From: Bacteroidales bacterium
GTDB lineage: Bacteria > Bacteroidota > Bacteroidia > Bacteroidales > Marinilabiliaceae
Direction of reading: 5' to 3'
NCBI GenBank assembly: GCA_012838865.1
Contig: DUOK01000233.1
Location: 3,512-67,511, forward strand
DNA: 64,000 nucleotides
Below the pieces are notes generated by a model that was not told the origin of the DNA, made no database searches, and worked only from the letters and a program-made list of their open reading frames with translations. Position numbers and translations under genes: made by a program. Below, piece after piece: positions 3,638 to 34,530 of this stretch. Within the stretch, counting starts at the first letter, position 1, and every line of letters starts with the position of its first letter.

Positions 3638-4963
3638 ATGACCAGCAACAAGTCCCCGGGTTTACCACCCCTCTTCCTTTTAGCCATGACCGACCAGGGC
3701 TATGCTGCCGCCAAACACCTGAGTGCCTATGGAATTCCCATCGTTGGGTTCTTCCCCAACAATAAGGGTTTTGAATATTTCAGTCGTCTCCCTTGCCAAA
3801 AACACGTATTGCCTGCGTCCAATAACGACCGAATGGCACTGCTGCGCAAAACAGCGGGGGACTTTGACCAAAAGCCGGTTTTAATGCTCACCGCAGAAAG
3901 CTACTTCCCATTCATTTACGAACACTTCGACGAAATAGACCAACTGTTTGCCCTGGAGATGCCCGATGCCGACACCCTGCATCAAATGCTCGACAAGAAC
4001 CGTTTCTCGGCCTTTGCCGAGACCTACCATCTTAAAATTCCCAAAAGCACTGAAGTAGGTCTGCACTTATTGCCGGAAGAACAGCTGTCTGAGGACCTCA
4101 ACTATCCACTGGTGATCAAACCCAAATACCGCACCGATCGCTGGAATGGTCGTTACCATACCAAAAAAGCTTTCCTGGCCCATAATCGACAGGAAGCCCT
4201 AAGTGTGTGTACAGAACTGCTGCAGGTCATCGACTGGCTGGTGGTACAGGAATTTGTACCCGGTCCCGACACCAATGTTTACTTTTGCCTGACCTATCTG
4301 ACCGCCTCGGGCGAAGCACTGGACACCTTTTGCGGACAAAAAATTCACCAACACCCCATTTTATTTGGCAATACCAGCTCGGCCCTTGCTGTAGACCTTC
4401 CTGCACTGAAAGCAGAAAGTCTGCGTATTTTAAAGACGGCCAAAATGAGTGGTTTTTGTTCGGTAGAATTCAAGCAACATGCCGTAACGGGCGACTTCTA
4501 TGTGATAGAACCTACCGTGGGGCGGATGGACCGGCAGCAATATGTGGCCATGGTCAGCAAGCACGATATGGTATTGAAAGCGTATTGCCACCTGGCCAGG
4601 ATTTCCCAGCTCACTCCCCGTAAGCAAAAAGAAAACTTCCTGTATGTCGAAGAGTCCCTGCAAATGAAGTCCTACCTCGACTACCACCATTATAAAAGCA
4701 AAGAGCAGGGTCGAATCCGACACCTGCTCCGTACGCACAAAATTCGTTTCATGCACCTGACCCTAAGAGACCCCCTGCCTTCCCTCCTGGTTCTGGCCGG
4801 GGTGCTCAAACACTTACTTCACTACCTGCTGAAAGGAAAAACCCGCTACTTTGAAGAAGACGACCTCACCCGACAACTCCTCCAGCTTAACCACCACAAG
4901 GCCCAACAATCTGGCGCTGCGGCCGCGGAAAAGAAGGAGAAAGTTCTTACAGTAACTAAATAG
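3638..4963 (+). CDS. ATP-grasp ligase (D-aspartate-ligase/carboxylate-amine ligase-like)
   Basis: LDKNRF, YPLVIKPK, VVQEFVPG, SGFCSVEFK...FYVIEP are ATP-grasp motifs. The 145 aa upstream of ATG 3638 are the antisense of the neighbouring gene and were discarded. Confidence 0.8.
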   Translation: MTSNKSPGLPPLFLLAMTDQGYAAAKHLSAYGIPIVGFFPNNKGFEYFSRLPCQKHVLPASNNDRMALLRKTAGDFDQKPVLMLTAESYFPFIYEHFDEIDQLFALEMPDADTLHQMLDKNRFSAFAETYHLKIPKSTEVGLHLLPEEQLSEDLNYPLVIKPKYRTDRWNGRYHTKKAFLAHNRQEALSVCTELLQVIDWLVVQEFVPGPDTNVYFCLTYLTASGEALDTFCGQKIHQHPILFGNTSSALAVDLPALKAESLRILKTAKMSGFCSVEFKQHAVTGDFYVIEPTVGRMDRQQYVAMVSKHDMVLKAYCHLARISQLTPRKQKENFLYVEESLQMKSYLDYHHYKSKEQGRIRHLLRTHKIRFMHLTLRDPLPSLLVLAGVLKHLLHYLLKGKTRYFEEDDLTRQLLQLNHHKAQQSGAAAAEKKEKVLTVTK

Positions 4964-4970
4964 AAAGGAA

Positions 4971-6146
4971 CTATAAAGCCTCCAGAAAGCGATGCAAGGC
5001 CTGAACCTGTACCGGTCGGTTGAAGGCTGTTGCCGCCATATGGCGGCAACGACTGCGCATCGCAGCCAGGTCGGCTTCTGCCAAACGGGCAAAGTTTTCT
5101 TTCAGGGCCGCCAAATCGCCGGGACGATTTACCCATCCTAAGTCGTTCTCTGCAACAATGCGTGCCCCCTCTCCTTCACCGGAAAATAAAATGGGGAGCC
5201 CCGCTGCCATGGCCTCGTAAATTTTAGAGGGAACGGCACCATAAATATTTTTAGTCAGCGGAATCAGCGCAGCATGATGTTGCACCAGCACTCCGGGAAT
5301 CTCCTCCCGCTGCAACACCCCGCCATAATAAATACCCCGCTCAGGATGCTCCGCCAGATAGGCCTCCAGTTCCTCCTTTTCGGCTCCTGCACCATATATA
5401 TGAAATTCCAGTCCCAGCTCCCGAAAATCAAGGGCACGACAAAGGCCCAGTATGCCCTGGGCTACCCCCAGTAGACCCGCATACACCACCTTGCGCGACC
5501 CCTGGTCGGCCGCCGGCTCCAGGGAGCGGAAACGCGCATAATCAACCCCGTTACGAAACAGGAAGGTCTGACCAAACCCACGCTCCCTAATGTAGGTAAC
5601 AATTTCCTGCGACTGCCCCAAAATACCTGCCGAGCGACGGTAAACAAAACGCTCCAGTCGCTCCAGTGCCCGATACAGGGTACCGCGCGACAAGGCGCCC
5701 AACTCCAGCGCAGATAAAGGCCAAAGGTCCGACACGTTGGTCACCATTCGCGCACCGGAGGCTTTCGCCAGCAGCCAGGCGGTCAGTGCCAGGGTTAAGG
5801 GGGGACTCTCCACCACCAACAAGTCGGGCTGCTTTTGGCGACAAAAGCGCCAGGCAAAAAGGGCGGTGAAAGAAAAGGACAGCATACTTAAAATACGCGG
5901 CAGAGTGCGCCTCGAGTTCGATGCATAGAGCCAAAAGCGCAAAAGAGCAATCCCGTCGCGCTCCTCACGCAAGGCAAAGCGTCCACGAAAATCCTTGAAA
6001 ATACGGCCCTCCGGATAATTGGGCAGGGCAGTAACCACCGACACTTCAGCACCCAAGGCTTTGAGGCCCCGAAGCATCTCAAAAAGACGACTCTGCGGAG
6101 CACCCATCTCGGGCCGGTAATACTGGGTCAATAAAACAATACGCAT
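4971..6146 (-). CDS. GT4 family glycosyltransferase (WbuB-like)
   Basis: LTQYYRPEMGAPQSR, TALPNYPEG, ESPPL, VSDLWP, VPSKIYEAMAAGLPI. Confidence 0.9.
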   Translation of the reverse strand: MRIVLLTQYYRPEMGAPQSRLFEMLRGLKALGAEVSVVTALPNYPEGRIFKDFRGRFALREERDGIALLRFWLYASNSRRTLPRILSMLSFSFTALFAWRFCRQKQPDLLVVESPPLTLALTAWLLAKASGARMVTNVSDLWPLSALELGALSRGTLYRALERLERFVYRRSAGILGQSQEIVTYIRERGFGQTFLFRNGVDYARFRSLEPAADQGSRKVVYAGLLGVAQGILGLCRALDFRELGLEFHIYGAGAEKEELEAYLAEHPERGIYYGGVLQREEIPGVLVQHHAALIPLTKNIYGAVPSKIYEAMAAGLPILFSGEGEGARIVAENDLGWVNRPGDLAALKENFARLAEADLAAMRSRCRHMAATAFNRPVQVQALHRFLEAL

Positions 6147-6148
6147 AC

Positions 6149-7306
6149 TTAACGGTAATGCTTTCGAAGGATGTCCACAATATTTTGGGCAGCCTGACCC
6201 TCGCCATAAGGATTACGGGCACTCGACATGCTTTCGTAAACCTCCGGCTCGTTTATCAGCCGCTTGCACCAATGCACTATTTCGTCACGACGGGTACCCA
6301 CCAGCTTCACCGTACCTGCCTCCACCGCCTCGGGTCGCTCCGTGGTATCGCGCATCACCAGGACCGGCTTACCCAGTCCCGGTGCCTCTTCCTGAATGCC
6401 CCCACTGTCGGTCAACACAAAAGCGCAGTGCTGCATCAAATAAACAAAGGGCAGGTATTCGAGCGGAGGAATCAGGTAAACGTTCGGCAAATCCTTCAGC
6501 AGCGCATTAACCGGTTGCTGTACATTGGGATTCAAATGTACCGGATAAATCACCTGCCAACCGGGATGCGTCTCCGCGACCTCACGAATGGAAGCACAGA
6601 TTTCCTCAAAACCCTTTCCGAAATTTTCCCGCCGGTGTCCGGTAACCAACACGTAGCGTCCCGCCTCAACCAAGTTAGCCGTGTTGGGAATGTGTTGTTG
6701 CAAGACCGAAAGCACGCCCTGCAAAAGGGGCCCGCCCTTTTGCAATTCGGCTCCGGCAATTTTCAACGCGTCAATCACCGTATTTCCGGTTATATGTATG
6801 CTCTTTTCTGCTACCTGCTCACGACGCAGATTATCCGCAGCCCACTCGGTAGGCGCAAAATGCAAATCCGCCAAGCGGCCCGTCAGCTGCCTGTTCATTT
6901 CCTCCGGCCAGGGAGAATACCTTTGATAGGTCCGCAGTCCCGCCTCCACATGGCCCACCTCCACCTGTCGGTAAAAAGCCGCAAGGGCAGCCGCTGTGCT
7001 GGTCCCTGTATCGCCGTGCACCAAAACCAAATCGGGTTTAAAGGTGTCCAAAACTGAACGCATACCCAACAATACCGCCGAAGTAATATCGAAAAGGTCC
7101 TGTCCGGCCTTCATGATGTTCAAATCGTACTCGGGCACAATGCCAAATACTTCCATCACCTGATCGAGCATCTGACGATGCTGTCCGGTTACACAAACCC
7201 GTGCATCAAAATACGCCTGCTGATCGGGATGCTTCAAGGCACGCACCAGAGGAGCCATCTTAATGGCCTCGGGGCGCGTCCCAAATACAATCAATACTTT
7301 TATCAT
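6149..7306 (-). CDS. wecB: UDP-N-acetylglucosamine 2-epimerase (non-hydrolysing)
   Basis: VFGTRPEAIKMAP, GQHRQM, VHGDT, HVEAGLRT, SPWPEEMNR, GHRRENF, TDSGGIQEEAP, TERPE. Confidence 0.95.
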   Translation of the reverse strand: MIKVLIVFGTRPEAIKMAPLVRALKHPDQQAYFDARVCVTGQHRQMLDQVMEVFGIVPEYDLNIMKAGQDLFDITSAVLLGMRSVLDTFKPDLVLVHGDTGTSTAAALAAFYRQVEVGHVEAGLRTYQRYSPWPEEMNRQLTGRLADLHFAPTEWAADNLRREQVAEKSIHITGNTVIDALKIAGAELQKGGPLLQGVLSVLQQHIPNTANLVEAGRYVLVTGHRRENFGKGFEEICASIREVAETHPGWQVIYPVHLNPNVQQPVNALLKDLPNVYLIPPLEYLPFVYLMQHCAFVLTDSGGIQEEAPGLGKPVLVMRDTTERPEAVEAGTVKLVGTRRDEIVHWCKRLINEPEVYESMSSARNPYGEGQAAQNIVDILRKHYR

Positions 7307-7364
7307 AGTTTCATTTTTTATCCTTTCATCCGTCAAAGTCACCAAAAATAGCGCATTTTATGCG

Positions 7365-8996
7365 CTATACATAACGAATGGGCGGAAGTTCTCCCCCGTC
7401 GCCACCCAGCGCAACGACCTGCCCTCTTTCATCCAGAACAAAACGCAGGCCGGCCAACAATTCGGCCTGTTGCCAGAGTTCCTGAAGCGTGGGCATCCAA
7501 ATTTTTTCCTCTGCCACCGCTAAAGACAGGCGCTCAAGGGCAGCCTTGGCCCCAGGCATAACATGCCCCTTGTTGTCGGCAAAAAGGCGGCCCGATTTAC
7601 GCCGGTCGGTATCGGCCAAATAGGTGTGCGCCAAACAAACTCCGGCTTCACCCATCAATACATTCAGGTTGTCCTGCGAAAAAGTAGCCGCAAAATCATG
7701 CACCTCAACGGTCTGGAAAAGCCAAAACCGCTGCCCACCCAAACCGACTTCAAACAAAATGGGTGTCATTTTCTGCCATTCAGGCAATCGCAGTCTCCCA
7801 CTCCCGAAGAACACCACCCGCAGCAACTGTGCCAACAAGCGAAAGCTGCCTGCCAAAAGCCGCGGCCAAATGCGCCAGGATTGCCTCCAGGCTTTTTTGC
7901 GCAGCCAGGCAGCCAGTTGTTGATAACGCTTTTGGGCACGAACACCACAAAAAAACAGGTTGTAGCTGCGCAGCAATTCGAAAACCCCGGACTGGGAGAA
8001 CTGCTGCATTAAGGTTTTACGATAGGCGGACAAGGAAAAATGCTTCGGATTCAACTGATTGATTCGACCCGGCCCGGATTGCCCTGCATCGAGATAGTTC
8101 CACAACAAACGCACGCCGGCCCTCCGCATACCCCGTGCCCAATCGATCAGCTCTGGAGCAGCGGCCGGGATACGACTTAAATTATAGGGCTGAAACCCAT
8201 GGTCTATCCAGGTGGTCCAGGACCCGGATTCCGTCACAAAGCGATCAAAATCATCCTCCCACTCCGATCGACTTGCACGGGTCGATTGTGAGAGACTGTG
8301 GTAACACAGTTCATGACCATCCTTCGCCCAATCTCTCAACAAATCGGCCTGCCTTTCCATCGACACATTCCAGGGACGTTTACTGTGATGAAACAAAAAG
8401 ACCCCTTTGGTAATGTTTAAACCTAAGCAGCGCAGAAAACGACGTTGTCGCTCCAACAAAACCGGAGAATCGAAATCGCAATGATCGGAGATGTTGAGGA
8501 TGGCTGAAAAAGGAATTCGGGAACGACTGAATTCGGGAACTGCCGAGCGGGTGAATAAAAAAGTGCATACCCACTCGTTGCGGGCCGGGGAGCAAGTGCT
8601 GAGCAAGGGGTCGTCGTTGGCATCGTAATGCAGACGCGGTTGCTGCAGCGGATCGGCCAAAATCCAGGTCAACTCCTGCGCCTGACGAGGATCGTAGTGC
8701 CAGGTGCCGTGGGTTTCACCAGCCACCATGCGCCAGTCGCCTTCCAGTTCGAGTATTTTGGGCGACCAGCTCCCGGCCATGCGGACCTGCTCGGCATTTA
8801 CCCATTTGTAATCGAAATTTCGCCAACGCAGCACCCTGGCATCCAGCTTTATCTGCAAATGCAGTCGCAACCCGGCAGTGACCAATCCCTCAGGAAGCCG
8901 AATAACAAAGCGATGCCTATGGCCCTCCTGCTCCTGCCGGACCCTGACACGTGATGGCGCTACGCCGTCAATCTCCAAAGAATAACTATGTATCAA
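7365..8996 (-). CDS. hypothetical protein with a central polysaccharide-deacetylase (CE4/NodB)-like segment
   Basis: Coupled to the upstream gene by an ATGA overlap. SDHCDFD and GHELCYHS resemble NodB motifs 1 and 2. Confidence 0.5.
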   Translation of the reverse strand: MIHSYSLEIDGVAPSRVRVRQEQEGHRHRFVIRLPEGLVTAGLRLHLQIKLDARVLRWRNFDYKWVNAEQVRMAGSWSPKILELEGDWRMVAGETHGTWHYDPRQAQELTWILADPLQQPRLHYDANDDPLLSTCSPARNEWVCTFLFTRSAVPEFSRSRIPFSAILNISDHCDFDSPVLLERQRRFLRCLGLNITKGVFLFHHSKRPWNVSMERQADLLRDWAKDGHELCYHSLSQSTRASRSEWEDDFDRFVTESGSWTTWIDHGFQPYNLSRIPAAAPELIDWARGMRRAGVRLLWNYLDAGQSGPGRINQLNPKHFSLSAYRKTLMQQFSQSGVFELLRSYNLFFCGVRAQKRYQQLAAWLRKKAWRQSWRIWPRLLAGSFRLLAQLLRVVFFGSGRLRLPEWQKMTPILFEVGLGGQRFWLFQTVEVHDFAATFSQDNLNVLMGEAGVCLAHTYLADTDRRKSGRLFADNKGHVMPGAKAALERLSLAVAEEKIWMPTLQELWQQAELLAGLRFVLDERGQVVALGGDGGELPPIRYV

Positions 8997-10300
8997 AGAC
9001 CCTCAAATTTTCGTTCAAAACGCTTGAACTTTCCCATAAGCGTACGTTCCAGTACCGCTTCATTTTTAATCTCAAGTTCCGCTGCAAAATCCAAGGCCTG
9101 CAAACACAAACGTCGCAAGCGGTCCTTCTCCTCTGCAAGCAAAGGACGCTCGCTGGCCACCTGCACCACAAAACGCTCCGGAGCGATTTGCAAAACCTTA
9201 TACTCATTCACCACCTTGCAATACTCCGAAAAAGCTTTAAACACATACAAAAACAAGGTGTCTCCAGCCACCTTCTTGCCCGAAGGCAGCCAGGCCATCT
9301 CCTCCACCCTGCCCTGTAAATGCGTCAGCCACAGTTGCCCGTCCAGCTCCTCTAAGGCCGCCATATCTCCAATTTCGTAACGAATCAAGGGCGTCCCCTG
9401 ATTGTAGAGGGGAGTCAGCACCACCTTTCCCACCTCCCCCCGGGCACAGGGCCGATTCTGCTCATCCAGAATCTCAGTCAGCATGAGCTCGTTCGACAAT
9501 TTCCAGCGACCATTTCTTCCAAAACCTACAATACCTGCCTCCGAGGCCCCGTATTCATTGTACACCGGAACCCCGTATACCCGCTCCATAAGAGCCATCT
9601 CCTCGAGGCTGCACATTTCGGAAGTGACAATAACCGTCTGTAAGGTAGGCAGCAGGACTTTAAGGACCAGCCCCTTTTTATCCAAAAAATGCGCAAAAGT
9701 CACCAAGGGATAGGCATAACCGTAAATATAAACAAAGGGGCGTCGACGAAAAGCATCCAGCCAGGACTCGAGTACAGACTCCGACAAATCAATGGTATTG
9801 AAGCGGACCCGGTTGCTGAGCCGGTCCTTCAAGCCTTCGGTTATACGGCTGCGCCTGCTCAGGGGAAAACCGAAAAAGCGGGCCTGCAAATCGTTGAAGC
9901 CCACACCGGCCGACCGGTAGCGATCTTCCAACAAACGCCAGGTAAGGGCGTGACTGAGGTAGTCCAGTGCGTAAGCAAAAGGTTTGCCGGTCGACCCGCT
10001 GGTCGCCCGATGATAATACTTTGGGTAGGCATTCTGGTCGGGCACCCTTGTAATCGCATGTTCCCTAATCAGGCGCTTATTAAGTACGGGCAGCTCCTCC
10101 CACGAAGCAGGCCAATCCCCTATAAAATGACGGAAACTGGTATTGGCCTGGTAGTGGTACTCCAAAGCTGCCCATTTCTGCCGTTCCAGGTAGGCCGGAT
10201 CGTGCGCCTCCCGCTTATACTCCTTAAACAAACGTCCCGCTTCATTCACCGGAAACCCCGTCCATTTCAACAGTCTGAAAAAATCCATCACCAGGTCCAT
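8993..10300 (-). CDS. phenylacetate-CoA ligase family (CapK-like) adenylate-forming enzyme
   Basis: TSGSTGKP P-loop, YGASEAG, PLIRYEIGD, GRVEE. Confidence 0.85.
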   Translation of the reverse strand: MDLVMDFFRLLKWTGFPVNEAGRLFKEYKREAHDPAYLERQKWAALEYHYQANTSFRHFIGDWPASWEELPVLNKRLIREHAITRVPDQNAYPKYYHRATSGSTGKPFAYALDYLSHALTWRLLEDRYRSAGVGFNDLQARFFGFPLSRRSRITEGLKDRLSNRVRFNTIDLSESVLESWLDAFRRRPFVYIYGYAYPLVTFAHFLDKKGLVLKVLLPTLQTVIVTSEMCSLEEMALMERVYGVPVYNEYGASEAGIVGFGRNGRWKLSNELMLTEILDEQNRPCARGEVGKVVLTPLYNQGTPLIRYEIGDMAALEELDGQLWLTHLQGRVEEMAWLPSGKKVAGDTLFLYVFKAFSEYCKVVNEYKVLQIAPERFVVQVASERPLLAEEKDRLRRLCLQALDFAAELEIKNEAVLERTLMGKFKRFERKFEGL

Positions 10301-12433: not shown

Positions 12434-12438
12434 CGACT

Positions 12439-16080: not shown

Positions 16081-16098
16081 AAGTGGGGAAAGTTTTCT

Positions 16099-17484: not shown

Positions 17485-17506
17485 AAATCCTTAGTATTTT
17501 AGCTGC

Positions 17507-19542: not shown

Positions 19543-19578
19543 AAGTCAAATATTTATTCGTTTATAATGGTTTCTTTT

Positions 19579-22434: not shown

Positions 22435-22440
22435 TCTCCT

Positions 22441-24485: not shown

Positions 24486-24487
24486 TA

Positions 24488-27193: not shown

Positions 27194-27194
27194 C

Positions 27195-28994
27195 TTAAAA
27201 TTCTTGCAATTCAACCATCTTTCTGAAACGGGGCGAACGCTCCTGCAGGGTCTCAAAGGTGCCCGAAGCGGCAATCTCTCCATTGTCGAGCAAATAGATT
27301 TCATCGGCTTTGCGCACGGTGGAAAGCCGGTGAGCGATGATAACAATGGTGTACTTGCCCTTCAGGGCATTGATGTTGCCCTGAATGATGCGCTCATTCT
27401 CCGTATCCAGCGCAGAAGTCGCCTCATCCATCAGCAAAAGCGAGCAATCGCGGTACAACTCGCGGGCGATGGAAATCCTTTGCTTTTGTCCCCCGGAGAT
27501 CAATACCCCGTTGTCGCCCAGCATCGCATCCTCCCGGTTCGGCATATTCTCAATGGTAGTGGTGAGTGCGGTTTTTTCCATCACCTCCCAAAACTTTTGA
27601 AGATTTTCCGGGGTCTTTTCTGCCCCGAAAGTCACGTTATTAAACACCGTGTCGTTAAATACCACCGGTTCCTGGGTAATGTAGCCAATCATGCGTCGCA
27701 GACTCCGGACCTTGTCGTTGCCCAAAGGTACGCCGTCGATAAGCAATTGGCCTTCCTGGGGCAGCAACAAACCCGCCAGCATATTCACCAGCGTGGTTTT
27801 CCCCGAGCCGCTTTCACCGACAAAGGCAACTGTTTTGTTTTTGGCAATACAAAGCGAAATGCCGTTGAGCACCTTGCGATCGGGCGCCCCGGGATAGGCA
27901 AAAACCACCTTGTCAAAGCGCAAATCTTTTTGGAGCGGGGGCAATTCTGTTTGTTCCCGGCATTCGGCCTTGGCTTCAAACTCATCGTAAAGCTCACTCA
28001 CCGTTTTAATGCCTCCGGAACTGACCAGGAAACTTTGCCAGGAACTTTGCAGGGAGAGGAGACTCACCAGTGAGCGGTAGAAAAACATCAATATCAGGGC
28101 AATACTGAACATCGAGACTTCAAAAACCACCACCTGGACAAAAATCACCCCTGCTACAATGGCGATGGTTACGGGCTCGCGCAAGGAGCCCGAAATCGCA
28201 TTCAGTTTGCCCATTTTCATCGTCAGATCTTCCACCTCATTAACCAGGCCCTCCAGCTTGTGCCTGTAGCGGGAAATCAGATCGGTGGCTTTCAGGTACT
28301 TAAAATTCCACACCGACTCCAGCACCTTCGATTGCAGTCCATTGCCAATATAGGATTGCATCAACGAAGAAGTTTCTACCTTCTTGTTGATGTATTTGTA
28401 GATGATTCCACTTAGGAGTCCCGCAAGCGTAGTCAACAAAGCAAAACGAAAATCGGCCAGAAAAGCCAAAGCCAGGTAACCGAAAAGCGTAATCAAAGCC
28501 TGCAAGGTGCTGAGATAAGCCAGCAAAGCACTTCCAGCTTTTCCAATTTCTCCGGTAATTACATTCTGAATGCGCCCCAGATCAATATTCACAAAGGCAG
28601 GGTAACTGATGTTGCAGAGTCCGTTGATCAATTGCATCCGCATCCGCTTCATAAAGCGCACCCTAATCTGTACCGAAAAGAAATGGTCCACAAAAGTTAC
28701 CAGGCCCTTAAAGGAAAACATCAGAATCATAAACAGGAGAATGGTGCCAACGGTGATGCTGAGTCCCAAGCGGGCAAAACCATCGACAACAAAACTGAGC
28801 TTACCCAAATCTGCCGTAGCGGCGTTGCCTGATTCTGCGACCTGAAAAAGGGGGATAAACAGGGCCAGACCAATGCCATCGAGCAGGGCAACAAAAGCGC
28901 TTAAAGCCAAAAGTACCGGAATACGCCAACGCAAGCGCTGGTAGTAAAAGAAGAAATATTTCACGGCACTTAAAGAACGAAAGTAAGCCAGCAT
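27195..28994 (-). CDS. ABC transporter permease/ATPase, PglK/MsbA-like lipid-linked glycan flippase
   Basis: Six-TM N-terminal domain, GESGSGKTT, ISGGQKQR, LLMDEATSALD, IAHRLST. Confidence 0.88.
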   Translation of the reverse strand: MLAYFRSLSAVKYFFFYYQRLRWRIPVLLALSAFVALLDGIGLALFIPLFQVAESGNAATADLGKLSFVVDGFARLGLSITVGTILLFMILMFSFKGLVTFVDHFFSVQIRVRFMKRMRMQLINGLCNISYPAFVNIDLGRIQNVITGEIGKAGSALLAYLSTLQALITLFGYLALAFLADFRFALLTTLAGLLSGIIYKYINKKVETSSLMQSYIGNGLQSKVLESVWNFKYLKATDLISRYRHKLEGLVNEVEDLTMKMGKLNAISGSLREPVTIAIVAGVIFVQVVVFEVSMFSIALILMFFYRSLVSLLSLQSSWQSFLVSSGGIKTVSELYDEFEAKAECREQTELPPLQKDLRFDKVVFAYPGAPDRKVLNGISLCIAKNKTVAFVGESGSGKTTLVNMLAGLLLPQEGQLLIDGVPLGNDKVRSLRRMIGYITQEPVVFNDTVFNNVTFGAEKTPENLQKFWEVMEKTALTTTIENMPNREDAMLGDNGVLISGGQKQRISIARELYRDCSLLLMDEATSALDTENERIIQGNINALKGKYTIVIIAHRLSTVRKADEIYLLDNGEIAASGTFETLQERSPRFRKMVELQEF

Positions 28995-29371
28995 ATTAAT
29001 TGGTCATTTGTGGGTTAGTTGTTTTACAGTTTGGCACGGCTCCGCCTCCCTCAGTCCCATAAACAGAGGCAGGTTTTCCCTTTGAAACATCAGCTAAGTT
29101 AGCACTCACTGCCCTAACTTTTTTTAAATTATGATTAACCCGTGGAATCCTTTGCCAAAGATGAATTTTCACACGACGAACGAAAAGCTGTTTAAACATT
29201 GGGCTTTTTTAGTCCACAAAAGCCCTGATTATCATATATCAGTAAAAATGTTTGCTTGGTCGATAATCATCCGGCACCGGTCAAAAACCAAAACGGAGCT
29301 ATGAACAAATCGCCTATCTTGGTTCCGCACCTTCGGCCCCAACCCTACGCTAAATCAAAAGGTATGTAGTT

Positions 29372-30526
29372 ATGGATAAACAACGCATTAAAGTAGCCAT
29401 CGCAGGAACGGGCTGCGTGGGAAGAGGCCTGGCCTTGCTCCTGAGCAATTTGCCCGACTTTGAACTTACGGGCATTCTCACGCGCCGCAAAGGCCCCATC
29501 AGCGATTTGCTGGTCAATCAGGCCCTGGTGACCAATAATGCCCACCAAGTGATGGAAGGAACCGACGTTTTGGTGGTCAGCACCGGCGATGTGGTTTATT
29601 CCACCGAAATCATCCGTTTGGCCTTCAGCTATAAGCTCCCCGTAGTAACCATGGATGCCGATACCCAAATTGTAAGCGGCTCGTGGCTGGCCAAGCAGGG
29701 CCGACTGACCGAAGCAGAGGGCGATCAGCCCGGCTGTCTGGCGGCACTGAAAGAGGAAGTTACGGCCATGGGCTTCCAGCCCTTGGTTCTGGGCAACATC
29801 AAAGGCTTTCTGAACCAGAACCCGACCATGGAAGAAATGTCCTTTTGGTCGAAGAAACAAGGCTTTTCCTTACACAGTGTGACTTCTTTCACCGACGGCA
29901 CCAAGCTGCAAACCGAACAGTGCCTGGTGGCCAACGGATTGGGCGCCGATATACTAAGACAGGGACTCACCGGCGAACACATCGACGACTTGCAAACGGG
30001 CGCGTTTCGCCTGGCTGAGCAGGCCAGTGCTGCCGGCAAAATCATCAGCGATTACATCATTTCCCCAACGGCCCCTCCCGGGGTATTTATTGTGGCGGAA
30101 CACGACCCAGCTTTGGCCGGCGGATTAAAAGCCTACAAAATGGGCGACGGCCCCTATTACCTGCATTACAAGCCCTACCACCTCTGTTACTTTGAAGTAC
30201 CCAAAACCATTCGCCGCTTCGTCCACGAGCAACGGGGACTTCTCGACAATGGCAGCAAACCGCACACAGGCGTTGCTGCCGTAGCCAAAAGAGACTTGCA
30301 GACCGGCAGTTTCATTGATACGGGGATTGGTTCCCTGATGGTACGTGGCGAGGCAATGGAGTTAGCGGCACTGCCCAATATGGTACCGATCGGCCTCCTG
30401 AATCAGGCCTGGCTTAAAAAGAAGGTGGAAGCGGGACAAGTACTGACTTTCGACGATGTAGATATTCCGGAGAGCACAGCGCTCACGGCCTGGGAGGAGA
30501 CTATGGCCCTGCACAAAACCATTTAA
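29372..30526 (+). CDS. NAD(P)-dependent oxidoreductase, homoserine-dehydrogenase-like with C-terminal SAF domain
   Basis: IAGTGCVG Rossmann motif, AEGDQPG, GNIKGFLN, FTDGTKL, GDGPYY, VAKRDLQTG...DGIG (SAF). Confidence 0.8.
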   Translation: MDKQRIKVAIAGTGCVGRGLALLLSNLPDFELTGILTRRKGPISDLLVNQALVTNNAHQVMEGTDVLVVSTGDVVYSTEIIRLAFSYKLPVVTMDADTQIVSGSWLAKQGRLTEAEGDQPGCLAALKEEVTAMGFQPLVLGNIKGFLNQNPTMEEMSFWSKKQGFSLHSVTSFTDGTKLQTEQCLVANGLGADILRQGLTGEHIDDLQTGAFRLAEQASAAGKIISDYIISPTAPPGVFIVAEHDPALAGGLKAYKMGDGPYYLHYKPYHLCYFEVPKTIRRFVHEQRGLLDNGSKPHTGVAAVAKRDLQTGSFIDTGIGSLMVRGEAMELAALPNMVPIGLLNQAWLKKKVEAGQVLTFDDVDIPESTALTAWEETMALHKTI

Positions 30527-30532
30527 GAGCAG

Positions 30533-31573
30533 TTAATAATCGGAAGGCGTGGGCACGGGAACATCCACCCGAAAACGACGGGCTTTACGACTTAAAAAGG
30601 GATTCATCCATCGCAGCGGAAATCTCAGGTACCAGGAATAATAGCTGAAAGCTTTTTCCTCACTGGCGCCCTGCTGCTCTTTAAACCGTCGAAGGCCTTC
30701 TCCCCCTTGGGCTTCATTGGGAATTACGCCCAGATTGTAGTATATCTTGCCCTGGCTCTGGGCATACTTCGACAGCTCCAAAGCAACCAGACTGGGAATG
30801 CCCAATTCGTAAGCCTTATCGTCAGAACCCATCAACAGAAAGTACAATCCCGCTTCACTCTCCAAGGCAAAAAGAACGGTGCGTATTAAGCCCTCCTGTT
30901 TGGCCACGAACATTTTACCCAGGCCCGAATCCAGCACCCGCTCCAGGGAAGCTGCATCCATGCCCTGTATGTACATTGGATCGTAATCACATCCGTACTT
31001 ATCCCGCCGAGTGCTGCGTGTAGTATCCAGGAGCTCCATGAGGCGATGCAATACGGCCGAGGAGGTGTCGGACTCCACCACCACCCCGGCTTTTCTCGCC
31101 TTGGCTGCATTCCGTTTTAAGTTGGAGCTGATTTTGGGAGGTCCGTCCAGCGCAGAATAATTAATCACAAACTCATTCATGGCCTTATGATAAAAGCCGG
31201 GAACGGCCATGGGCTGGTCCTCCCGAAAGTCGAAGGCATGTAAAAAAATGCGTCCGCATTTTTTACTGCGTGCGTACTTCAACAGACTCCGCAAGCAAGT
31301 CTTACGCACCACTGCATCGTTTCCAAGGGTCAATAAGCCCGAGAAAAAATAAAGGTCCTTGTTAAATTTGAGGCGACTTTGAACCAACTGGCCGGCCAAC
31401 TTTCCCACCAACCCCAGCTGCGGGTCCTCAAAATGAAGAAAAAGCGCTTGCCGGTCCTTTCCGGCCATGGCATTGATCCAGGCCGAATGATGAAACACCC
31501 CGCCATGGAAATCCGTCATGGAAGCATCCCACTCGGCAGCATTCACCTCTGCAATCAGAATTTTTTCAGACAT
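30533..31573 (-). CDS. FemABX-like tandem-GNAT transferase (paralogue 3)
   Basis: KRNAAKARK, YYNLG...GEGLRRFKEQQG. Confidence 0.75.
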   Translation of the reverse strand: MSEKILIAEVNAAEWDASMTDFHGGVFHHSAWINAMAGKDRQALFLHFEDPQLGLVGKLAGQLVQSRLKFNKDLYFFSGLLTLGNDAVVRKTCLRSLLKYARSKKCGRIFLHAFDFREDQPMAVPGFYHKAMNEFVINYSALDGPPKISSNLKRNAAKARKAGVVVESDTSSAVLHRLMELLDTTRSTRRDKYGCDYDPMYIQGMDAASLERVLDSGLGKMFVAKQEGLIRTVLFALESEAGLYFLLMGSDDKAYELGIPSLVALELSKYAQSQGKIYYNLGVIPNEAQGGEGLRRFKEQQGASEEKAFSYYSWYLRFPLRWMNPFLSRKARRFRVDVPVPTPSDY

Positions 31574-31575
31574 AG

Positions 31576-32616
31576 CTATGGTTTCATCAATTTAACACGC
31601 AAACGCCTCAACAACAAAAGCAAGGGATTGAGCAAGCGGTGGGGAAAGCACAAAAAATTGGTGGTGGCACCATACACCCAACGCCTTTGTCCCCCACGGG
31701 CCTCCTTGCTTCTTTCCAGTCCGGCAGAGCCGGCATCTCCGGTGGCTCCGCCCAAATTGTATGCGCTGTAGCGCTGCAAGCGGTAACTTTCTATGAGCTG
31801 ATAATCGGCCAGTCCCGCCAGACCAAAACGGTAAGCCGCACTGTCTGATCCCACCAACAGATTAAAAGCGCGGCCCTCACGCTCCAGATTAAACAAAACA
31901 CAATTGGGAGTCGGAGCCCCGGGAAGCGTTACTTTATAATAGCGGCCAGCACCTTCCTTATAGAGTCTTTCCAGACTATTGCTGTTCAAAAGCGGTAAAT
32001 AAAAAGGATTGTAGGTCTCCCCGTATTTTGAGCTCCTCGTTTCAAGGGTCGCGCCCAACAAGTCCTCCAAGTCGGCCTGCAAATCCTCCCCTTCAGCCGG
32101 CCCAAAAAGCGCCTCCTTTTTCAGCGCCTTTTTCACATTGCGCTTGAAATTGGTACTGAAAACCGGCCCTTCGCCATTTAGGGGGACAACAAACTCACAG
32201 CGCTTGTTGACAAACCAACCTTTAACACCCGGGGCCATGCTGTGTTGCTGATCGTAAGAGGCCATAAGCATGCGTTGAATGCCCTTACTGCGCGCATAGG
32301 CAAGCAGGGCCGTACAACAGGCATCCAATAAATCCTGCCGGGTTTCCCCTAAAGCAGGCGAGGCATAGAACAACAAACTGCGCCCTTTGAGCCACCCATT
32401 CTGCTGCAGCACTCCGGATACCTTAGCCACCACGGTGTCGTCCTGCACAAAATCCAGAAAAACACGCTTTGCCTGCGTTCCGGCCATTGCCCGGACCCAT
32501 TCCGGGGTAAGGAAAAGACTGAAAGCAAAATCGTTCAAATTTCTCTCCCATACTTCGGGTCGGGCAGCGACAACTCTGAGGGGACTGTTTTTTCCTTCGG
32601 TAGCATTCTTCATCAA
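31576..32616 (-). CDS. FemABX-like tandem-GNAT transferase (paralogue 2)
   Basis: KRNVKKALKK, AYNLGG...AGLERSKEARG. Confidence 0.72.
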   Translation of the reverse strand: MMKNATEGKNSPLRVVAARPEVWERNLNDFAFSLFLTPEWVRAMAGTQAKRVFLDFVQDDTVVAKVSGVLQQNGWLKGRSLLFYASPALGETRQDLLDACCTALLAYARSKGIQRMLMASYDQQHSMAPGVKGWFVNKRCEFVVPLNGEGPVFSTNFKRNVKKALKKEALFGPAEGEDLQADLEDLLGATLETRSSKYGETYNPFYLPLLNSNSLERLYKEGAGRYYKVTLPGAPTPNCVLFNLEREGRAFNLLVGSDSAAYRFGLAGLADYQLIESYRLQRYSAYNLGGATGDAGSAGLERSKEARGGQRRWVYGATTNFLCFPHRLLNPLLLLLRRLRVKLMKP

Positions 32617-32620
32617 AGCA

Positions 32621-33682
32621 CTAAGAAAAATTAAATAAACGAATGATGCTGCGGCCGATGTTCAGCACGGGATGATCGGGGAGTTTCTTACTCAGCTTGA
32701 TAAAAGGATTAAGGATTTTATAGGGATAGGTCAGGAAGTAGGTATAATACCCATAACGCAGTATTTCCCGACCGCCTTGTGATTCCTTGTAGCGTTTTAG
32801 ACCTTCGCCGCCCTCACTTTCGAGGGGCACGGTACCCAAATTATAGTACAAGGCCCCTTCTTCGTGCGCTTTGGCCGAAATGGTTTTATCTATAAAGGAA
32901 GGGATTCCATGCCGATAAGCATAATCGTCGGAGCCCATCAGCAGAGCAAAAATGCGGCCCGCGTGCTCCAGATTGAACTGAACACTGTGAATCACCCCAT
33001 CCACCACAGCATAGTGCATAATGCCCATGCCGTTTTCAAGTAACTTCGTTAGGGTAGAGCGATTCAAATTTAGCAGATACATCGGATCGTAATTGTGCCC
33101 GTACTTCTCCTTCCTGGTCAGGCGGGTATTGTCCATCAACTCGAACATTCTTTCGAGTATTTCGAGGGAGCGACTGGAATGAAACTCAGCCCCAACCTTT
33201 CGGGCCTTCTTGGCATTTTGTTTGAAGCCAAAGCTGAGCTTGACCCGCTCTGGGTGTTCGGCAAAAACCACCACATATTCCTTGGCCAGGGTACTGAAGT
33301 AGTGCGGCAGTTCAAGACGCTCGTGCACTTCCTGCTCAAAGGGGCGTACATGCACCCTTGCGTAACCCTCCTTCAAGGCAAAGCGGTACAGCGTTTGCAA
33401 ACAAGCAGCAAAAAGTTCGGGCGACCACTGCTTTAAGCCCGGTCCGGATGTAAAATACAAATGACGCCCCTTCATTTTGCCCTGATTGAGCATAAATCCT
33501 GACAGCTTTCCTACGACTTCCTGCCCGCGGAGAAAGTGAAAATAAACATCACGGGTAAAATCATTGGTGAGCGCAGAAACCCATTGCCAGGTATTGAAGA
33601 GACCCACATTGTACAGGTCCATATCCTGCTTCCAATCAGACAGGTCTACCTGTTGAATAATTAACGACGCGTTATTGGGCAT
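32621..33682 (-). CDS. FemABX-like tandem-GNAT transferase (paralogue 1)
   Basis: KQNAKKARK, YYNLG...GEGLKRYKESQG. ATG at 33682 preferred to TTG at 33688. Confidence 0.75.
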   Translation of the reverse strand: MPNNASLIIQQVDLSDWKQDMDLYNVGLFNTWQWVSALTNDFTRDVYFHFLRGQEVVGKLSGFMLNQGKMKGRHLYFTSGPGLKQWSPELFAACLQTLYRFALKEGYARVHVRPFEQEVHERLELPHYFSTLAKEYVVVFAEHPERVKLSFGFKQNAKKARKVGAEFHSSRSLEILERMFELMDNTRLTRKEKYGHNYDPMYLLNLNRSTLTKLLENGMGIMHYAVVDGVIHSVQFNLEHAGRIFALLMGSDDYAYRHGIPSFIDKTISAKAHEEGALYYNLGTVPLESEGGEGLKRYKESQGGREILRYGYYTYFLTYPYKILNPFIKLSKKLPDHPVLNIGRSIIRLFNFS

Positions 33683-33798
33683 AATCAAGGATAGTTTCTT
33701 GCAAGATAAAAGGAATGCCCTTAGCTCCTTAATATTTTACACAACCGGCCCCAATTTGTTTACAAACAGCCCAAAAACGCCAATAGTCTGATTTACCA

Positions 33799-34530
33799 TC
33801 AAGCGTTTGGAAAACGTCCATAGACCAAAGCAACCCTTGCCCTTTCTCCCAGAAAGGAAGCACGCCGCATGATGGTCCTGAACCCCATCTTACGCGTTAA
33901 AACGTGCACTCTTTGATCCATAAGCGCGTGTCCCAACACCGCAACATAGCCCTGCTGCTGCGCTTCCATCCAGATGTGAATAACTGCGCGGGCCGACAGC
34001 CAGGCCCCCTGCTCGTCGGGCACAACCGAAATATTCTCCATATAAAAAGCGGAAAATTCGCCGTAGTGCGGATGCAGGCCCAATTCAAAGCCATATTCAA
34101 AGGGCGAATAAAATTCCAGGTAGGTCCCCAAAGTATAAGCCACCGGACGACCATCCCGGTAATACAAAAAACAAAGGGCCTGCTTTTTATTGAAATCAGC
34201 AAAACGCAAACGAAGACTCTCTGCATCAATCCGATTGCCCTCAGGGTAACACTGTTTCTCTACCTCCAGTATGTCGGCCAGACAGGCTTCAATATTCGCG
34301 GCAGAAACACGCAGCTCCTGAATACTTTCGGCAGTTCTTTCGCAACTGGTCAAATAGATTTTGTGGGCATAATCCATCAGCTCAGCATGGAGCGGAGGAG
34401 GCAGGGGGCTTTCCGTAAAACGAAGACGACCAAGGGTCAACCAACGGTACAAATTGCAGCGGGAACTGCGAAAGGGCAGATACAAATCGGCCCTATACAG
34501 ACATTCAGTAAGCGCAGTGTAAATACCCAT
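33799..34530 (-). CDS. GNAT-fold hypothetical protein
   Basis: ILEVEKQCYP, YYRDGRPVAYTLG, FYMENISVVPDEQG, TRKMGF. Starts 17 nt after the def stop. Confidence 0.55.
   Translation of the reverse strand: MGIYTALTECLYRADLYLPFRSSRCNLYRWLTLGRLRFTESPLPPPLHAELMDYAHKIYLTSCERTAESIQELRVSAANIEACLADILEVEKQCYPEGNRIDAESLRLRFADFNKKQALCFLYYRDGRPVAYTLGTYLEFYSPFEYGFELGLHPHYGEFSAFYMENISVVPDEQGAWLSARAVIHIWMEAQQQGYVAVLGHALMDQRVHVLTRKMGFRTIMRRASFLGERARVALVYGRFPNA

Follow-up and report, generated by a model that had tools for sequence, protein, structure and literature searches.

The 64,000-nucleotide stretch of Bacteroidales DNA analyzed here (the window) raises the question of what is attached, and to what, by a polysaccharide locus that carries nine genes for acyl or aminoacyl transfer. 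These nine had been listed in a first-pass annotation, and all of them are present where it placed them, with support that is uneven from one to the next. The annotation had the locus begin at 3638, but its actual start is at 675, with DegT aminotransferase, glycosyltransferase, and Bac_transf genes preceding the earlier boundary. Positions 675 to 34530 are one expressed polysaccharide locus. Metatranscriptome contigs from four runs cover the region from end to end and break at the divergent promoter region (29073-29344), and the gene order is found again in related genomes, with proteins 37 to 85% identical, so that the clustering of these genes is above chance. The best explanation is a lipid-linked glycan assembly locus of an uncultured Marinilabiliaceae-type member of the Bacteroidota, a digester bacterium.

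The nine genes of the locus comprise three tandem FemABX-like paralogs and a divergent fourth (Fem4), two LbH acyltransferases, a PaaK/CapK-type adenylating enzyme, an ATP-grasp ligase, and a weak GNAT. Alongside them are a candidate ABC flippase, a KDN-type nonulosonate pathway, and a cassette for a 3-amino-3,6-dideoxyhexose, made up of DegT and two FdtA cupins (Table 1).

Table 1. Features of the polysaccharide locus, in order of position in the window
Feature	Position	Strand	Match or remark
PseC/ArnB-like DegT aminotransferase	675-1865	-	PseC-like 351 bits, below cut-off
Glycosyltransferase	1877-2896	-	
Small Bac_transf initiating phosphoglycosyl transferase	2884-3465	-	
ATP-grasp carboxylate-amine ligase, 441 aa	3638-4963	+	COG3919 / D-aspartate-ligase type
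Glycan assembly genes	4971-22434	-	GT4 x5; GT2 x3 (19579-22434)
WecB non-hydrolysing UDP-GlcNAc 2-epimerase	6149-7345	-	502 bits, above cut-off
543-aa protein, Bacteroidota-wide family	7365-8996	-	Invariant DHCDxD, HExxxH, and DH motifs
CapK/PaaK-like adenylate-forming enzyme	8993-10300	-	PDB PaaK 4e-9
Wzy_C polymerase/ligase-type protein	13550-14941	-	
BFO_1060-like GT-B protein	16099-17484	-	
CMP-transferase fused to KDN-9-P/KdsC-type phosphatase	17507-18676	-	CTP_transf_3 + HAD
NeuB-family synthase	18667-19542	-	NeuB 233 bits
DegT/FdtB-type sugar aminotransferase	22441-23550	-	PF01041 340.6 bits
Fem4, divergent Fem-like protein	23541-24485	-	TIGR03019 (FemAB family) 5.2e-6, nearly full length
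LbH acyltransferase 2	24488-24973	-	Hexapep 57 bits; 34% identical to LbH1
LbH acyltransferase 1	24970-25479	-	Hexapep 65 bits
Short divergent DegT-like protein, 304 aa	25476-26390	-	PF01041 39 bits, one segment
FdtA-type cupin paralog 2	26365-26826	-	PF05523 160 bits
FdtA-type cupin paralog 1	26801-27193	-	PF05523 142 bits
ABC half-transporter (TMD+NBD), MsbA/HepA/PglK type	27195-28994	-	Pfam ABC_membrane + ABC_tran
DRL-family NAD(P)-dependent oxidoreductase	29372-30526	+	PF21135 123 bits
FemC-like paralog	30533-31573	-	PF13480 26.1 bits; 35% identical to FemA-like
FemB-like paralog	31576-32613	-	PF13480 22.0 bits; 32% identical to FemA-like
FemA-like tandem-GNAT transferase	32621-33682	-	PF13480 33.2 bits
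Divergent GNAT-like protein, 243 aa	33799-34530	-	PF00583 E=0.027

The four Fem-like proteins and their modelled fold

The annotation's count of four FemABX-like proteins stands. The three tandem copies all reach the PF13480 cut-off of 22 bits, are mutually 31 to 35% identical, and have some homologues that match PF02388 (FemAB). The FemA-like protein is the best-conserved copy, with 46 to 67% identity across the Marinilabiliaceae; orthologues of the FemB-like protein are 37 to 51% identical, and many metagenomes of digesters and compost have contigs that encode an identical FemC-like protein. Fem4 matches TIGR03019 but scores far below its cut-off (25.7 versus 260 bits), and PF13480 was matched in 4 of 4 Fem4 orthologues (best 2e-5), again below curated cut-offs. 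Fem4 aligned end to end with the profile of the trio (hhalign, E=0.027), and its FKEGFG motif is conserved. No signal peptide was found in any of the four, and a membrane domain is absent from these proteins.

When the AF2 model of the FemA-like protein (pLDDT 89.4, pTM 0.87) was compared with the PDB by using Foldseek, the top 29 matches consisted only of aminoacyl-tRNA-dependent transferases plus one protein of unknown function. The best match was Sba18/Sbb17 with streptothrisamine (E 3e-14, TM 0.61 to 0.73), and others at the top were Weissella FemX (1e-13), Staphylococcus aureus FemX and FemA, and the MprF/aa-PG synthases; CoA-dependent tandem GNATs scored 5 to 6 orders of magnitude worse. 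Among 63 Fem-like sequences, the FemX-type lysine (K299) is present in 62, preceded by Y or F in 55, and a basic helix (K154, K158, K159, and K162) is retained in at least 51. In an HMM alignment, this helix falls on FemX residues 170 to 180 (KSKIKRPFRDG). In FemX, Lys305 is the key residue, and the tRNA-binding element is a positively charged helix in GNAT domain 2 (PMC12945691). We concluded that the Fem-like proteins, as modelled, share the tandem-GNAT fold of the aminoacyl-tRNA-dependent transferases.

FemX/FemA/FemB and MurM/MurN ordinarily use amino acids from charged tRNA to make the interpeptide bridges of peptidoglycan. The likeness to them extends from the fold (Foldseek E 1e-13, TM about 0.65) to a length of about 340 aa with no FemA coiled coil, the C-terminal (F/Y)-K lysine, the basic helix that opens GNAT domain 2, and an arrangement of paralogs in series, which suggests stepwise addition. 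In contrast to those systems, the host is a Gram-negative member of the Bacteroidota, the Fem genes lie beside amino-sugar genes rather than cell-wall genes, and there are up to 8 copies; in sequence, the Fem proteins resemble FemX only marginally (E about 0.2). Orf11, Sba18, and Sbb17 from the streptothricin-type BD-12 pathway carry out Gly-tRNA-dependent aminoacylation of the streptothrisamine amino sugar (PMC12945691); they are the best structural matches (TMt 0.73) and a precedent for aminoacylation of a sugar amine by a Fem-like enzyme. However, they come from an actinomycete pathway for an antibiotic, in which one transferase acts on a small molecule, whereas the window has paralog arrays in a glycan locus, and identity to its Fem proteins is only 13 to 15%.

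The amino-sugar cassette and its relatives

The Fem4 gene sits between the LbH2 and DegT aminotransferase genes, with overlapping reading frames, in a cassette whose first gene encodes the ABC protein (MsbA 289 bits, HepA 286 bits, PglK 218 bits). None of the locus genes was identified as Wzx type, and the ABC protein is the sole flippase candidate there. The FdtA-like cupins claimed for the locus, of which there are two, and its pair of LbH acyltransferases are clear. Cupin paralog 2 retains a conserved H-x-H motif and is probably the dTDP-4-keto-6-deoxyhexose 3,4-ketoisomerase; in paralog 1, H-A-F replaces H-x-H. Of three DegT proteins claimed, one in the cassette is full length (22441-23550) and another is short and divergent (25476-26390), with a conserved lysine aligned with the PLP lysine, but the third (675-1865) lies outside the range first given for the locus. 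The cassette resembles the FdtA/FdtB/FdtC and QdtA/QdtB/QdtC pathways to dTDP-Fuc3NAc and dTDP-Qui3NAc (PMC7685785) in its clustered FdtA-family cupin, DegT aminotransferase, and LbH acyltransferase genes. It differs from them in having two cupin paralogs (one with H-A-F in all orthologues), an extra short DegT-like protein, LbH proteins closer to the WcaF/MAT type than to the named FdtC/QdtC models (for LbH1 the nearest NCBIfam families, of the WcaF and maltose O-acetyltransferase types, all score below cut-off), and a Fem-like gene inserted between the LbH and DegT genes. We regard Fem4 as a candidate for the first aminoacyl transferase acting on the amino sugar.

The Fem trio has the same orientation as def and ruvX and belongs to a different transcription unit from the sugar genes, with the opposite-strand DRL gene (1.5e-28 to Brucella DRL, 3upl) and a 377-bp divergent intergenic region in between. 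The GNAT that the annotation had noted is encoded at the head of the trio, and its three best PDB profile matches are all GNAT acetyltransferases, but the matches are weak (E about 1). Its gene position is kept in the related loci L008, L010, and L020-L023, and it is possibly an N-terminal capping acetyltransferase.

When gene neighborhoods were compared, Fem arrays recurred with the sugar cassette. L007, L008, L021, and L023 all keep the order [GNAT]-Fem x3-4-(DRL)-ABC-FdtA1-FdtA2-DegT-like-LbH1-LbH2-Fem4-DegT, and L015 has the same cassette order with six Fem copies. Across Marinilabiliaceae loci, the arrays hold 3 to 8 copies and usually adjoin the same ABC-FdtA-LbH-Fem4-DegT cassette; the paralogs are intact, with 25 to 67% identity across genera, and the DRL gene adjoins the arrays in L007, L009, L012, and L013. 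Elsewhere, CapK-like homologues lie directly beside single Fem-like genes (L016-L018 and L025) or alternate with them (L024). In Breznakibacter xylanolyticus, five Fem copies are surrounded by unrelated genes, with no sugar genes nearby.

A remote member of the window's Fem subfamily, P0110 (locus L028), is a 901-aa MetRS-like protein fused to a Fem-like domain (profile E 1e-48). Its MetRS-like part retains the HIGH motif and the anticodon-binding domain and seems to have lost KMSKS, and its gene is followed by a second Fem-like gene and by NDP-hexose C-methyltransferase-like, NDP-sugar epimerase/reductase, and RmlC-like genes (a deoxysugar cluster). LysX-type proteins are aaRS-MprF fusions. 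P0110 repeats this logic of joining a synthetase to a tRNA-dependent transferase, and the GNAT-pair fold is the same, but neither P0110 nor the window Fem proteins have a membrane flippase domain, and their context is one of sugar rather than lipid genes.

Activating enzymes and nonulosonate genes

The ATP-grasp ligase claimed for the locus is borderline as a single sequence but is supported by its family profile, which in the PDB matches D-Ala-D-Ala ligases (1.6e-6) and, more strongly, CPSase (carbamoyl-phosphate synthetase, 6.5e-8); homologues carry the JGI names D-aspartate ligase or ATP-grasp carboligase. As an ATP-grasp protein in a polysaccharide locus, it resembles two amide ligases of surface polymers, the Cj1438 C-terminal domain and the Enterococcus D-aspartate ligase type (COG3919), but it is a stand-alone protein encoded on the opposite strand. 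For the Campylobacter jejuni HS:2 capsule, Cj1438C makes an amide at the carboxylate of GlcA (PMC11800379); a uronic-acid dehydrogenase was not seen among the genes of the locus studied here. The CapK-like enzyme was also borne out, with readable ANL motifs (TSGSTGKP, YGASE, and YEIGD); among NCBIfam families, those of CoA ligases matched at 1e-14 or weaker, and none reached its cut-off. The end of its gene is overlapped by 4 nt by the start of the gene for the 543-aa protein, which had been called a CE4-like deacetylase. No family match backs that name, and none of 284 homologues has a Pfam domain. The model (pLDDT 88.9) resembles CE4 deacetylases and TIM-barrel hydrolases only weakly, and the protein is possibly a CE4-like metal hydrolase. 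The nonulosonate genes were confirmed as NeuB and a CMP-transferase/KDN-9-P-phosphatase-like fusion, whose phosphatase domain scores 134 bits for the KdsC subfamily (above cut-off) and 163 bits for KDN-9-P phosphatase (cut-off, 180).

What the Fem-like enzymes may modify

We give a probability of roughly 0.5 to the reading, drawn from sequence and models, that the locus would use its Fem-like enzymes to decorate a surface glycan with amino acids or a short peptide. This is made probable by the fact that four such enzymes adjoin amino-sugar genes, and O antigens with amino-acylated amino sugars have been described (PMC7685785). A peptide or multiply acylated side chain had been proposed in the annotation, and the tandem-GNAT fold, the lysine and basic helix, the arrays beside the amino-sugar cassette, and the MetRS-like fusion fit stepwise aminoacylation of an amino sugar. 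We counted against it the marginal FemX similarity, the cataloguing of PF13480 as an acetyltransferase family, the orientation of the trio with def/ruvX, apart from the sugar operon, the stand-alone B. xylanolyticus array, the lack of any tRNA or aaRS gene in the locus and of RmlA and RmlB in the window, and, for P0110, the apparent loss of KMSKS and a Fem domain only 25% identical to the window Fem proteins. The CapK-like/Fem adjacency fits an acyl-CoA donor equally well.

In the scheme that we infer, including its donor, acceptor, step order, chain length, and final glycoconjugate, dTDP-4-keto-6-deoxyglucose (made by genes outside the window) would be isomerized by an FdtA-type cupin and the product transaminated by DegT (22441-23550) to a dTDP-3-amino-3,6-dideoxyhexose. 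Fem4 would move an amino acid from aminoacyl-tRNA onto the free amine of this sugar, and the three tandem paralogs would each add one further residue to the new alpha-amine, on the model of FemX/FemA/FemB acting on lipid II and Sba18/Orf11 acting on streptothrisamine; the GNAT or an LbH enzyme would perhaps add an acyl cap. Glycosyltransferases would assemble the unit, with ManNAc and a KDN-type nonulosonate, on undecaprenyl phosphate, for flipping by the MsbA/PglK-type ABC protein and polymerization or ligation by the Wzy_C protein, and further amides may arise from carboxylate activation by the ATP-grasp and CapK-like enzymes.

An unlikely but by no means negligible alternative is that the Fem-like proteins are acyl-CoA-dependent N-acyltransferases, the CapK-like enzyme making an unusual acyl-CoA and the tandem GNATs attaching simple acyl groups such as acetyl to amino sugars or de-N-acetylated residues, giving a multiply acylated glycan with no peptide. 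The Pfam label of PF13480 is acetyltransferase (GNAT) domain, homologues are named "GNAT family N-acetyltransferase" in public records, and HfsK, a Fem-like GNAT of EPS loci, has a proposed role in acylating amines that a deacetylase uncovers (PMC5362036); in the window, the gene of the possible CE4-like hydrolase overlaps the CapK-like gene, and CapK-like genes accompany Fem-like genes in five related loci. However, the top structural matches are aminoacyl-tRNA dependent, with CoA-dependent tandem GNATs far worse, the proteins keep the FemX-type lysine and the strongly basic helix, one relative is joined in a fusion with a tRNA-synthetase-like domain, and simple acetylation hardly explains three to eight paralogs.

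We consider it improbable that the Fem array has a target other than this glycan, its adjacency being partly synteny, although Sba18/Sbb17, the closest solved structures, belong to an antibiotic pathway (PMC12945691), an ABC exporter heads the conserved sugar cassette, the trio is transcribed with def and ruvX and not with the glycosyltransferases, and one array stands alone. A small exported metabolite, whether an aminoacylated sugar-nucleotide or a compound like an aminoglycoside, is disfavored because the genes for the glycosyltransferases, Wzy_C, and the initiating transferase run on from the cassette on the same strand, with frames that overlap, and because the NRPS, PKS, resistance, and regulator genes usual in antibiotic clusters are absent from the locus. 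A lipid target would suit a fold common to MprF-type lipid aminoacylases, but the Fem proteins, unlike MprF, have no membrane domain. Interpeptide bridges are, as far as we know, characteristic of Gram-positive bacteria, and we know of no species whose peptidoglycan requires as many as 8 copies, which disfavors a peptidoglycan precursor. Least credible is an ordinary O-antigen or capsule-type locus with inactive or redundant extra transferases: polysaccharide loci are mosaic and acyltransferase rich, and the GNAT, CE4-like, and Fem4 assignments fall below curated cut-offs, but the paralogs are intact across genera with invariant catalytic-type residues, the region is present in metatranscriptome assemblies, and gene order is kept over a large evolutionary distance.

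HfsK (Caulobacter holdfast) and TIGR03019 (PEP-CTERM/exosortase EPS loci) are likewise PF13480-type Fem-like GNATs with a genetic link to exopolysaccharide synthesis (PMC5362036), but they are single genes or dispersed paralogs in Proteobacteria, with no linked 3-amino-sugar cassette, tandem arrays, or tRNA-synthetase fusion reported in the literature examined. Fem-like genes in polysaccharide loci were thus already known, and the earlier term "undescribed system" is too strong. Taken together, the Fem fold, the FemX-type lysine and basic helix, the array synteny, and the synthetase fusion therefore strengthen, without proving, the view that this bacterium may make a glycopeptide.

Layout and expression of the locus

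Nearly all genes between 675 and 35558 lie on the minus strand and are packed tightly or overlap; the order tabulated below was obtained by profile scans and is read from the right end. The first-pass annotation had drawn a polysaccharide locus at 3638-34530, and the region does form one such locus, but its true start lies ~3 kb earlier, at a PseC/ArnB-like DegT gene (675). The number of acyl- or aminoacyl-transfer candidates proposed for it, nine, was the same on recounting. We found no RmlA/RmlB or Wzx gene in the window and no tRNA or aminoacyl-tRNA synthetase gene in the locus. Outside the locus, the window carries housekeeping genes (PPDK, PFOR, Rho, RpoD, tmRNA and MutS2) and genes for T9SS cargo proteins.

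Features of the polysaccharide locus, read from its right end, and of the surrounding window
Feature	Coordinates	Strand	Place or content
ruvX and def	34548-35558	-	right end; housekeeping
GNAT-like protein	33799-34530		243 aa
FemA-like gene	32621-33682	-	tandem trio
FemB-like gene	31576-32613	-	tandem trio
FemC-like gene	30533-31573	-	tandem trio
DRL-family oxidoreductase	29372-30526	+	
Divergent intergenic region			between DRL and ABC genes; 377 bp
MsbA/HepA/PglK-type ABC half-transporter		-	minus-strand run, first part
FdtA cupin, H-A-F	26801-27193	-	first part
FdtA cupin, H-x-H	26365-26826	-	first part
Short DegT-like gene		-	first part
LbH1 acyltransferase	24970-25479	-	first part
LbH2 acyltransferase	24488-24973	-	first part
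Fem4	23541-24485	-	first part
Full DegT aminotransferase		-	first part
GT2 x3, NeuB synthase, CMP-transferase fused to KdsC/KDN-9-P-type phosphatase, BFO_1060-like GT-B protein		-	minus-strand run, middle
GT4 genes, Wzy_C protein		-	minus-strand run, end
CapK/PaaK-like enzyme	8993-10300	-	end
543-aa protein	7365-8996	-	end
Non-hydrolysing WecB, another GT4		-	end
ATP-grasp gene	3638-4963	+	
Small Bac_transf initiating transferase, glycosyltransferase			left end
PseC/ArnB-like DegT	675-1865		left end
tmRNA gene	48771-49169	+	tag GESNYALAA
Short ORF	50233-51000	-	partial HisKA and partial receiver domain; possibly a piece of a hybrid sensor kinase
tRNA-Thr(GGT)	54019-54091	+	
1468-aa secreted protein	54096-58502	-	M6 peptidase, MAM, CarboxypepD_reg, T9SS C-terminal sorting domain

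Several genera have the Fem array next to ruvX and def (peptide deformylase): the arrangement recurs in the related loci L007, L009, L011 and L013 as well as the window. This adjacency is probably plain synteny, but a tRNA-dependent system beside def is still curious.

Nearly all of 22000-35600 is represented in contigs assembled from four metatranscriptome runs, whose sources are compost, gut and other metagenomes. In one run the contigs stop precisely where the ABC and DRL genes diverge (29073/29344). Contigs of this kind are strandless and may include DNA carry-over; they support expression of the locus and are not taken as operon mapping. In the assembly of one run (X6), four consecutive A's within the GNAT-like gene (34109-34113) have become five, which would shift the frame and may reflect strain variation or misassembly.

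Fem-like proteins and their relatives

All three proteins of the tandem trio lie at or above the PF13480 cut-off of 22 bits (33.2, 22.0 and 26.1 bits), bearing out their earlier assignment as FemABX-like; they share 31-35% pairwise identity, and their homologues also match PF02388. The FemA-like ORF has a TTG start, and the called gene begins two codons later. Single-sequence PDB searches with the FemA-like and 543-aa proteins returned nothing useful, so that profiles or structure models were needed. The AF2/AlphaFold model of the FemA-like protein, the only one of the trio modelled, has a two-GNAT FemX-type fold (pLDDT 89.4). Its best Foldseek matches are all aminoacyl-tRNA-dependent: Sba18/Sbb17 (streptothrisamine-bound; 3e-14), the Weissella and S. 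aureus FemX proteins (FemX 1e-13, TM 0.64-0.69), FemA, and the catalytic domains of MprF/aa-PG synthases.

Lys305 is the key catalytic residue of FemX, and a positively charged helix of its second GNAT domain is the proposed tRNA-binding element (PMC12945691). Across the 63 Fem-like sequences that the window and its related loci supply, K299 (FemA-like numbering) is present in 62, with Y or F before it in 55. K299 appears equivalent to FemX Lys305 and DhpH-C Lys329 in the C-terminal F-K motif, as judged by motif position and not by structural superposition, because the HMM alignment ends 9-12 residues short. A helix of the form F-K-x-N-x-K-K-A-x-K, which aligns with FemX residues 170-180 in the HMM alignment, retains its basic residues in 51-57 of the 63 sequences; FemX Y254 is not conserved in that alignment.

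The divergent fourth protein, Fem4, scored below the PF13480 threshold (18.3 bits; cut-off, 22), but several weak, concordant matches argue for the family membership originally proposed for it: TIGR03019 is matched at 5e-6 over residues 18-286, PF13480 is matched by 4/4 orthologues, an FKEGFG motif is present, and hhalign against the trio profile gave a full-length alignment, with an E value of only 0.027. The GNAT candidate is likewise in place, but its family support is weak.

The subfamily is rare: in a set of 1.84 billion, its profile recovered no more than 714 representatives with E<=1e-3, and 139 of these reached <=1e-30. Public records name these proteins "GNAT family N-acetyltransferase" or "hypothetical." The species-representative genomes with Fem-like relatives are all Marinilabiliaceae (Geofilum, Alkaliflexus, Breznakibacter, Saccharicrinis and UBA lineages), and the cluster of a 61%-identical homologue takes in the cultured Xiashengella succiniciproducens, whose protein WP_250723092.1 shares 61% identity with the FemA-like protein. 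Biogas, fermenter and other metagenomes contain contigs that encode the identical FemC-like protein in the same gene order.

Our comparison covered 20 related loci. Genome scans had yielded only 12 loci and metagenome scans 8, so that co-occurrence statistics rest on small numbers and extend no further than Marinilabiliaceae and a few other relatives. Four loci (L007, L008, L021 and L023) share the order [GNAT]-FemA-FemB-FemC-(extra Fem)-(DRL)-ABC-FdtA1-FdtA2-DegT-like-LbH1-LbH2-Fem4-DegT, and L015 does so with six Fem copies; protein identities to the window are 37-85%. Thus, the Fem array and the amino-sugar cassette travel together. The number of tandem copies is three in the window and L007, four in L008, L010 and L021-L023, five in Geofilum (G. 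rubicundum JCM 15548) and B. xylanolyticus, seven in L015 and eight in L013, where one extra PF02388-type copy is included. The best-conserved copy is the def-proximal one, and the added copies are 23-39% identical to any window paralog. An exception to the shared setting is B. xylanolyticus DSM 6779, whose five copies lie amid unrelated genes. More distant members of the subfamily stand alone, each immediately behind a CapK-like gene on the border of a polysaccharide locus (L016-L018 and L025), and L024 alternates Fem-Fem-CapK-Fem-CapK. The Geofilum array holds a truncated Fem copy and inserted genes, one of them choline-kinase-like; copy-number variation was seen in L013, L015, L014 and L009.

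Fusions were sought among the long representatives of the subfamily. P0019 (703 aa) is a Fem-Fem fusion, and P0156 (715 aa) joins a PGA_cap domain (CapA, poly-gamma-glutamate capsule protein) to a Fem-like domain. P0110 (901 aa; L028:1576-4281, ENA ERZ27256953 contig k141_5911076, GC 59%) joins a class-I MetRS-like module to a Fem-like domain; it matches tRNA-synt_1g at 238 bits and keeps the HIGH motif and the anticodon-binding domains, with KMSKS apparently lost. Downstream of it lie a second Fem-like gene, NDP-hexose C-methyltransferase-like, NDP-sugar epimerase/reductase and RmlC-like genes, and a glycosyltransferase fragment. Of the indirect evidence that a sugar undergoes a tRNA-dependent step, this fusion of a synthetase-like, tRNA-binding module to a Fem domain, once more amid deoxysugar genes, is the strongest; coming from one remote relative, at 25% identity, it is a lead and not proof.

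Partner enzymes and sugar-making genes

The other enzymes named at first reading mostly held up. The ATP-grasp protein was borderline as a single sequence (PF02786, 19.4 bits; cut-off, 19.8), and its fold was recognized securely at profile level, where family profile A4 matched the CPSase large subunit (6.5e-8), the CPS-like structure 2pn1 (2.8e-7, residues 57-324) and Ddl (1.6e-6). The CapK-like protein carries the ANL core motifs TSGSTGKP, YGASE and YEIGD and resembles PaaK structures over residues 217-317 (4e-9 to 1e-7), in keeping with an adenylating enzyme; it has no named equivalog, since every NCBIfam match falls far below cut-off. Both LbH acyltransferases are clear.

The 543-aa protein, initially read as a CE4-like deacetylase, has no Pfam or NCBIfam match. 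At least 284 Bacteroidota proteins make up its family, in which the DHCDxD, HExxxH and DH motifs are invariant, and its structure model is confident. Foldseek matches of the model to CE4 are weak (E ~1e-3, TMt 0.4-0.58) and are outranked by TIM-barrel glycosidase matches, also weak. The family is probably one of unclassified metal-dependent hydrolases. Its members (~540 aa), which combine an N-terminal beta-sandwich with a barrel-like domain, are widespread, including in Flavobacterium, Winogradskyella and Psychroserpens, and sit in polysaccharide loci (P0201-P0320; L027:8001-9614). Obligate pairing of this hydrolase with CapK was considered and rejected: the F. johnsoniae homologue, although in a polysaccharide locus, has no CapK-like gene beside it.

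Both FdtA-like cupins match PF05523, at 160 bits for the H-x-H cupin and 142 bits for the H-A-F cupin. The H-x-H pair of FdtA/QdtA 3,4-ketoisomerases (His49/His51 in FdtA) is kept by the former only; H-A-F replaces it in the latter and in all five orthologues. This conserved paralog may be non-catalytic or functionally changed. The nonulosonate pathway genes were also recovered: the NeuB-family synthase (233 bits), the cytidylyltransferase and the HAD C0 phosphatase, whose domain scores 134 bits for the KdsC subfamily (cut-off, 107) and 163 bits for KDN-9-P phosphatase. Because the latter is under its cut-off of 180, the nonulosonate could be KDN or a related acid.

Donor, product and rival readings

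The basic helix, the nearest structures and the one remote relative that carries a MetRS-like fusion point indirectly, through resemblance of fold and motif, to aminoacyl-tRNA as the donor. We put the probability that tRNA-dependent aminoacylation decorates this glycan at about 0.5. The H-x-H cupin and DegT would make a 3-amino-3,6-dideoxyhexose, following the logic of that pathway (PMC7685785), and Fem4 would aminoacylate its amine from charged tRNA. The trio would then extend the chain, each enzyme with charged tRNA, and a GNAT or LbH enzyme might cap it. Assembly of the unit, with ManNAc and the KDN-type acid, would take place on a lipid carrier; the ABC protein would then flip it and the Wzy_C protein polymerise or ligate it. 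The ATP-grasp and CapK-like enzymes would work in the reverse chemical sense, forming amides through carboxylate activation. The fuller version, in which Marinilabiliaceae build a defined oligopeptide of ~3-8 residues directly on a surface-glycan amino sugar by a tRNA-dependent Fem-like assembly line, one paralog per residue, is tentative and on present evidence rather unlikely.

The main rival is that the Fem-like proteins take an acyl-CoA donor, as the catalogue name of the family, HfsK (PMC5362036) and the pairing with CapK would suggest; tandem GNATs that use CoA gave far weaker Foldseek scores against the FemA-like model, and we consider this donor unlikely, if a serious contender. A product other than this glycan, for which the separate transcription unit of the trio, the ABC exporter and the stand-alone Fem array speak, seems improbable. 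That the locus is an ordinary one with idle paralogs is very improbable because the paralogs are conserved and the locus is expressed. A peptidoglycan-precursor acceptor (UDP-MurNAc-pentapeptide or lipid II) was judged unlikely in a polysaccharide locus of a Gram-negative host, and so, from context, was an MprF-like lipid role.

Amide-linked amino acids are common on amino sugars of O antigens and capsules, for example in E. coli O91, O114, O121 and O167 (PMC7685785). For most of these linkages no attaching enzyme has been assigned. Single amino acids on O-antigen amino sugars are already known, as are Fem-like genes in EPS loci, the latter without an assigned role. In the literature searched, we found no Fem-like enzyme assigned to O-antigen aminoacylation, although one may exist beyond it, and no description of tandem arrays of 3-8 Fem-like genes in a Gram-negative family, of their fixed linkage to an FdtA/DegT cassette, or of a synthetase-Fem fusion.

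If the Fem-like proteins attach the amino acids, Gram-negative bacteria would be using charged tRNA to decorate their surface glycans, which would make glycans a fourth target class for tRNA-dependent transferases, beside peptidoglycan, membrane lipids and antibiotics. The genes would then serve as a genomic marker for glycans that bear amino acids or peptides and as an enzyme set for making glycopeptides. Cultured carriers exist, so the question is directly testable, and the arrays, with their 3-8 copies, offer a natural experiment for learning what encodes the length and sequence of a chain. Were the oligopeptide reading true, these bacteria would perform template-free peptide synthesis without ribosome or NRPS, outside peptidoglycan, and each species would have its own "glycopeptide serotype," set by the number and identity of its paralogs.
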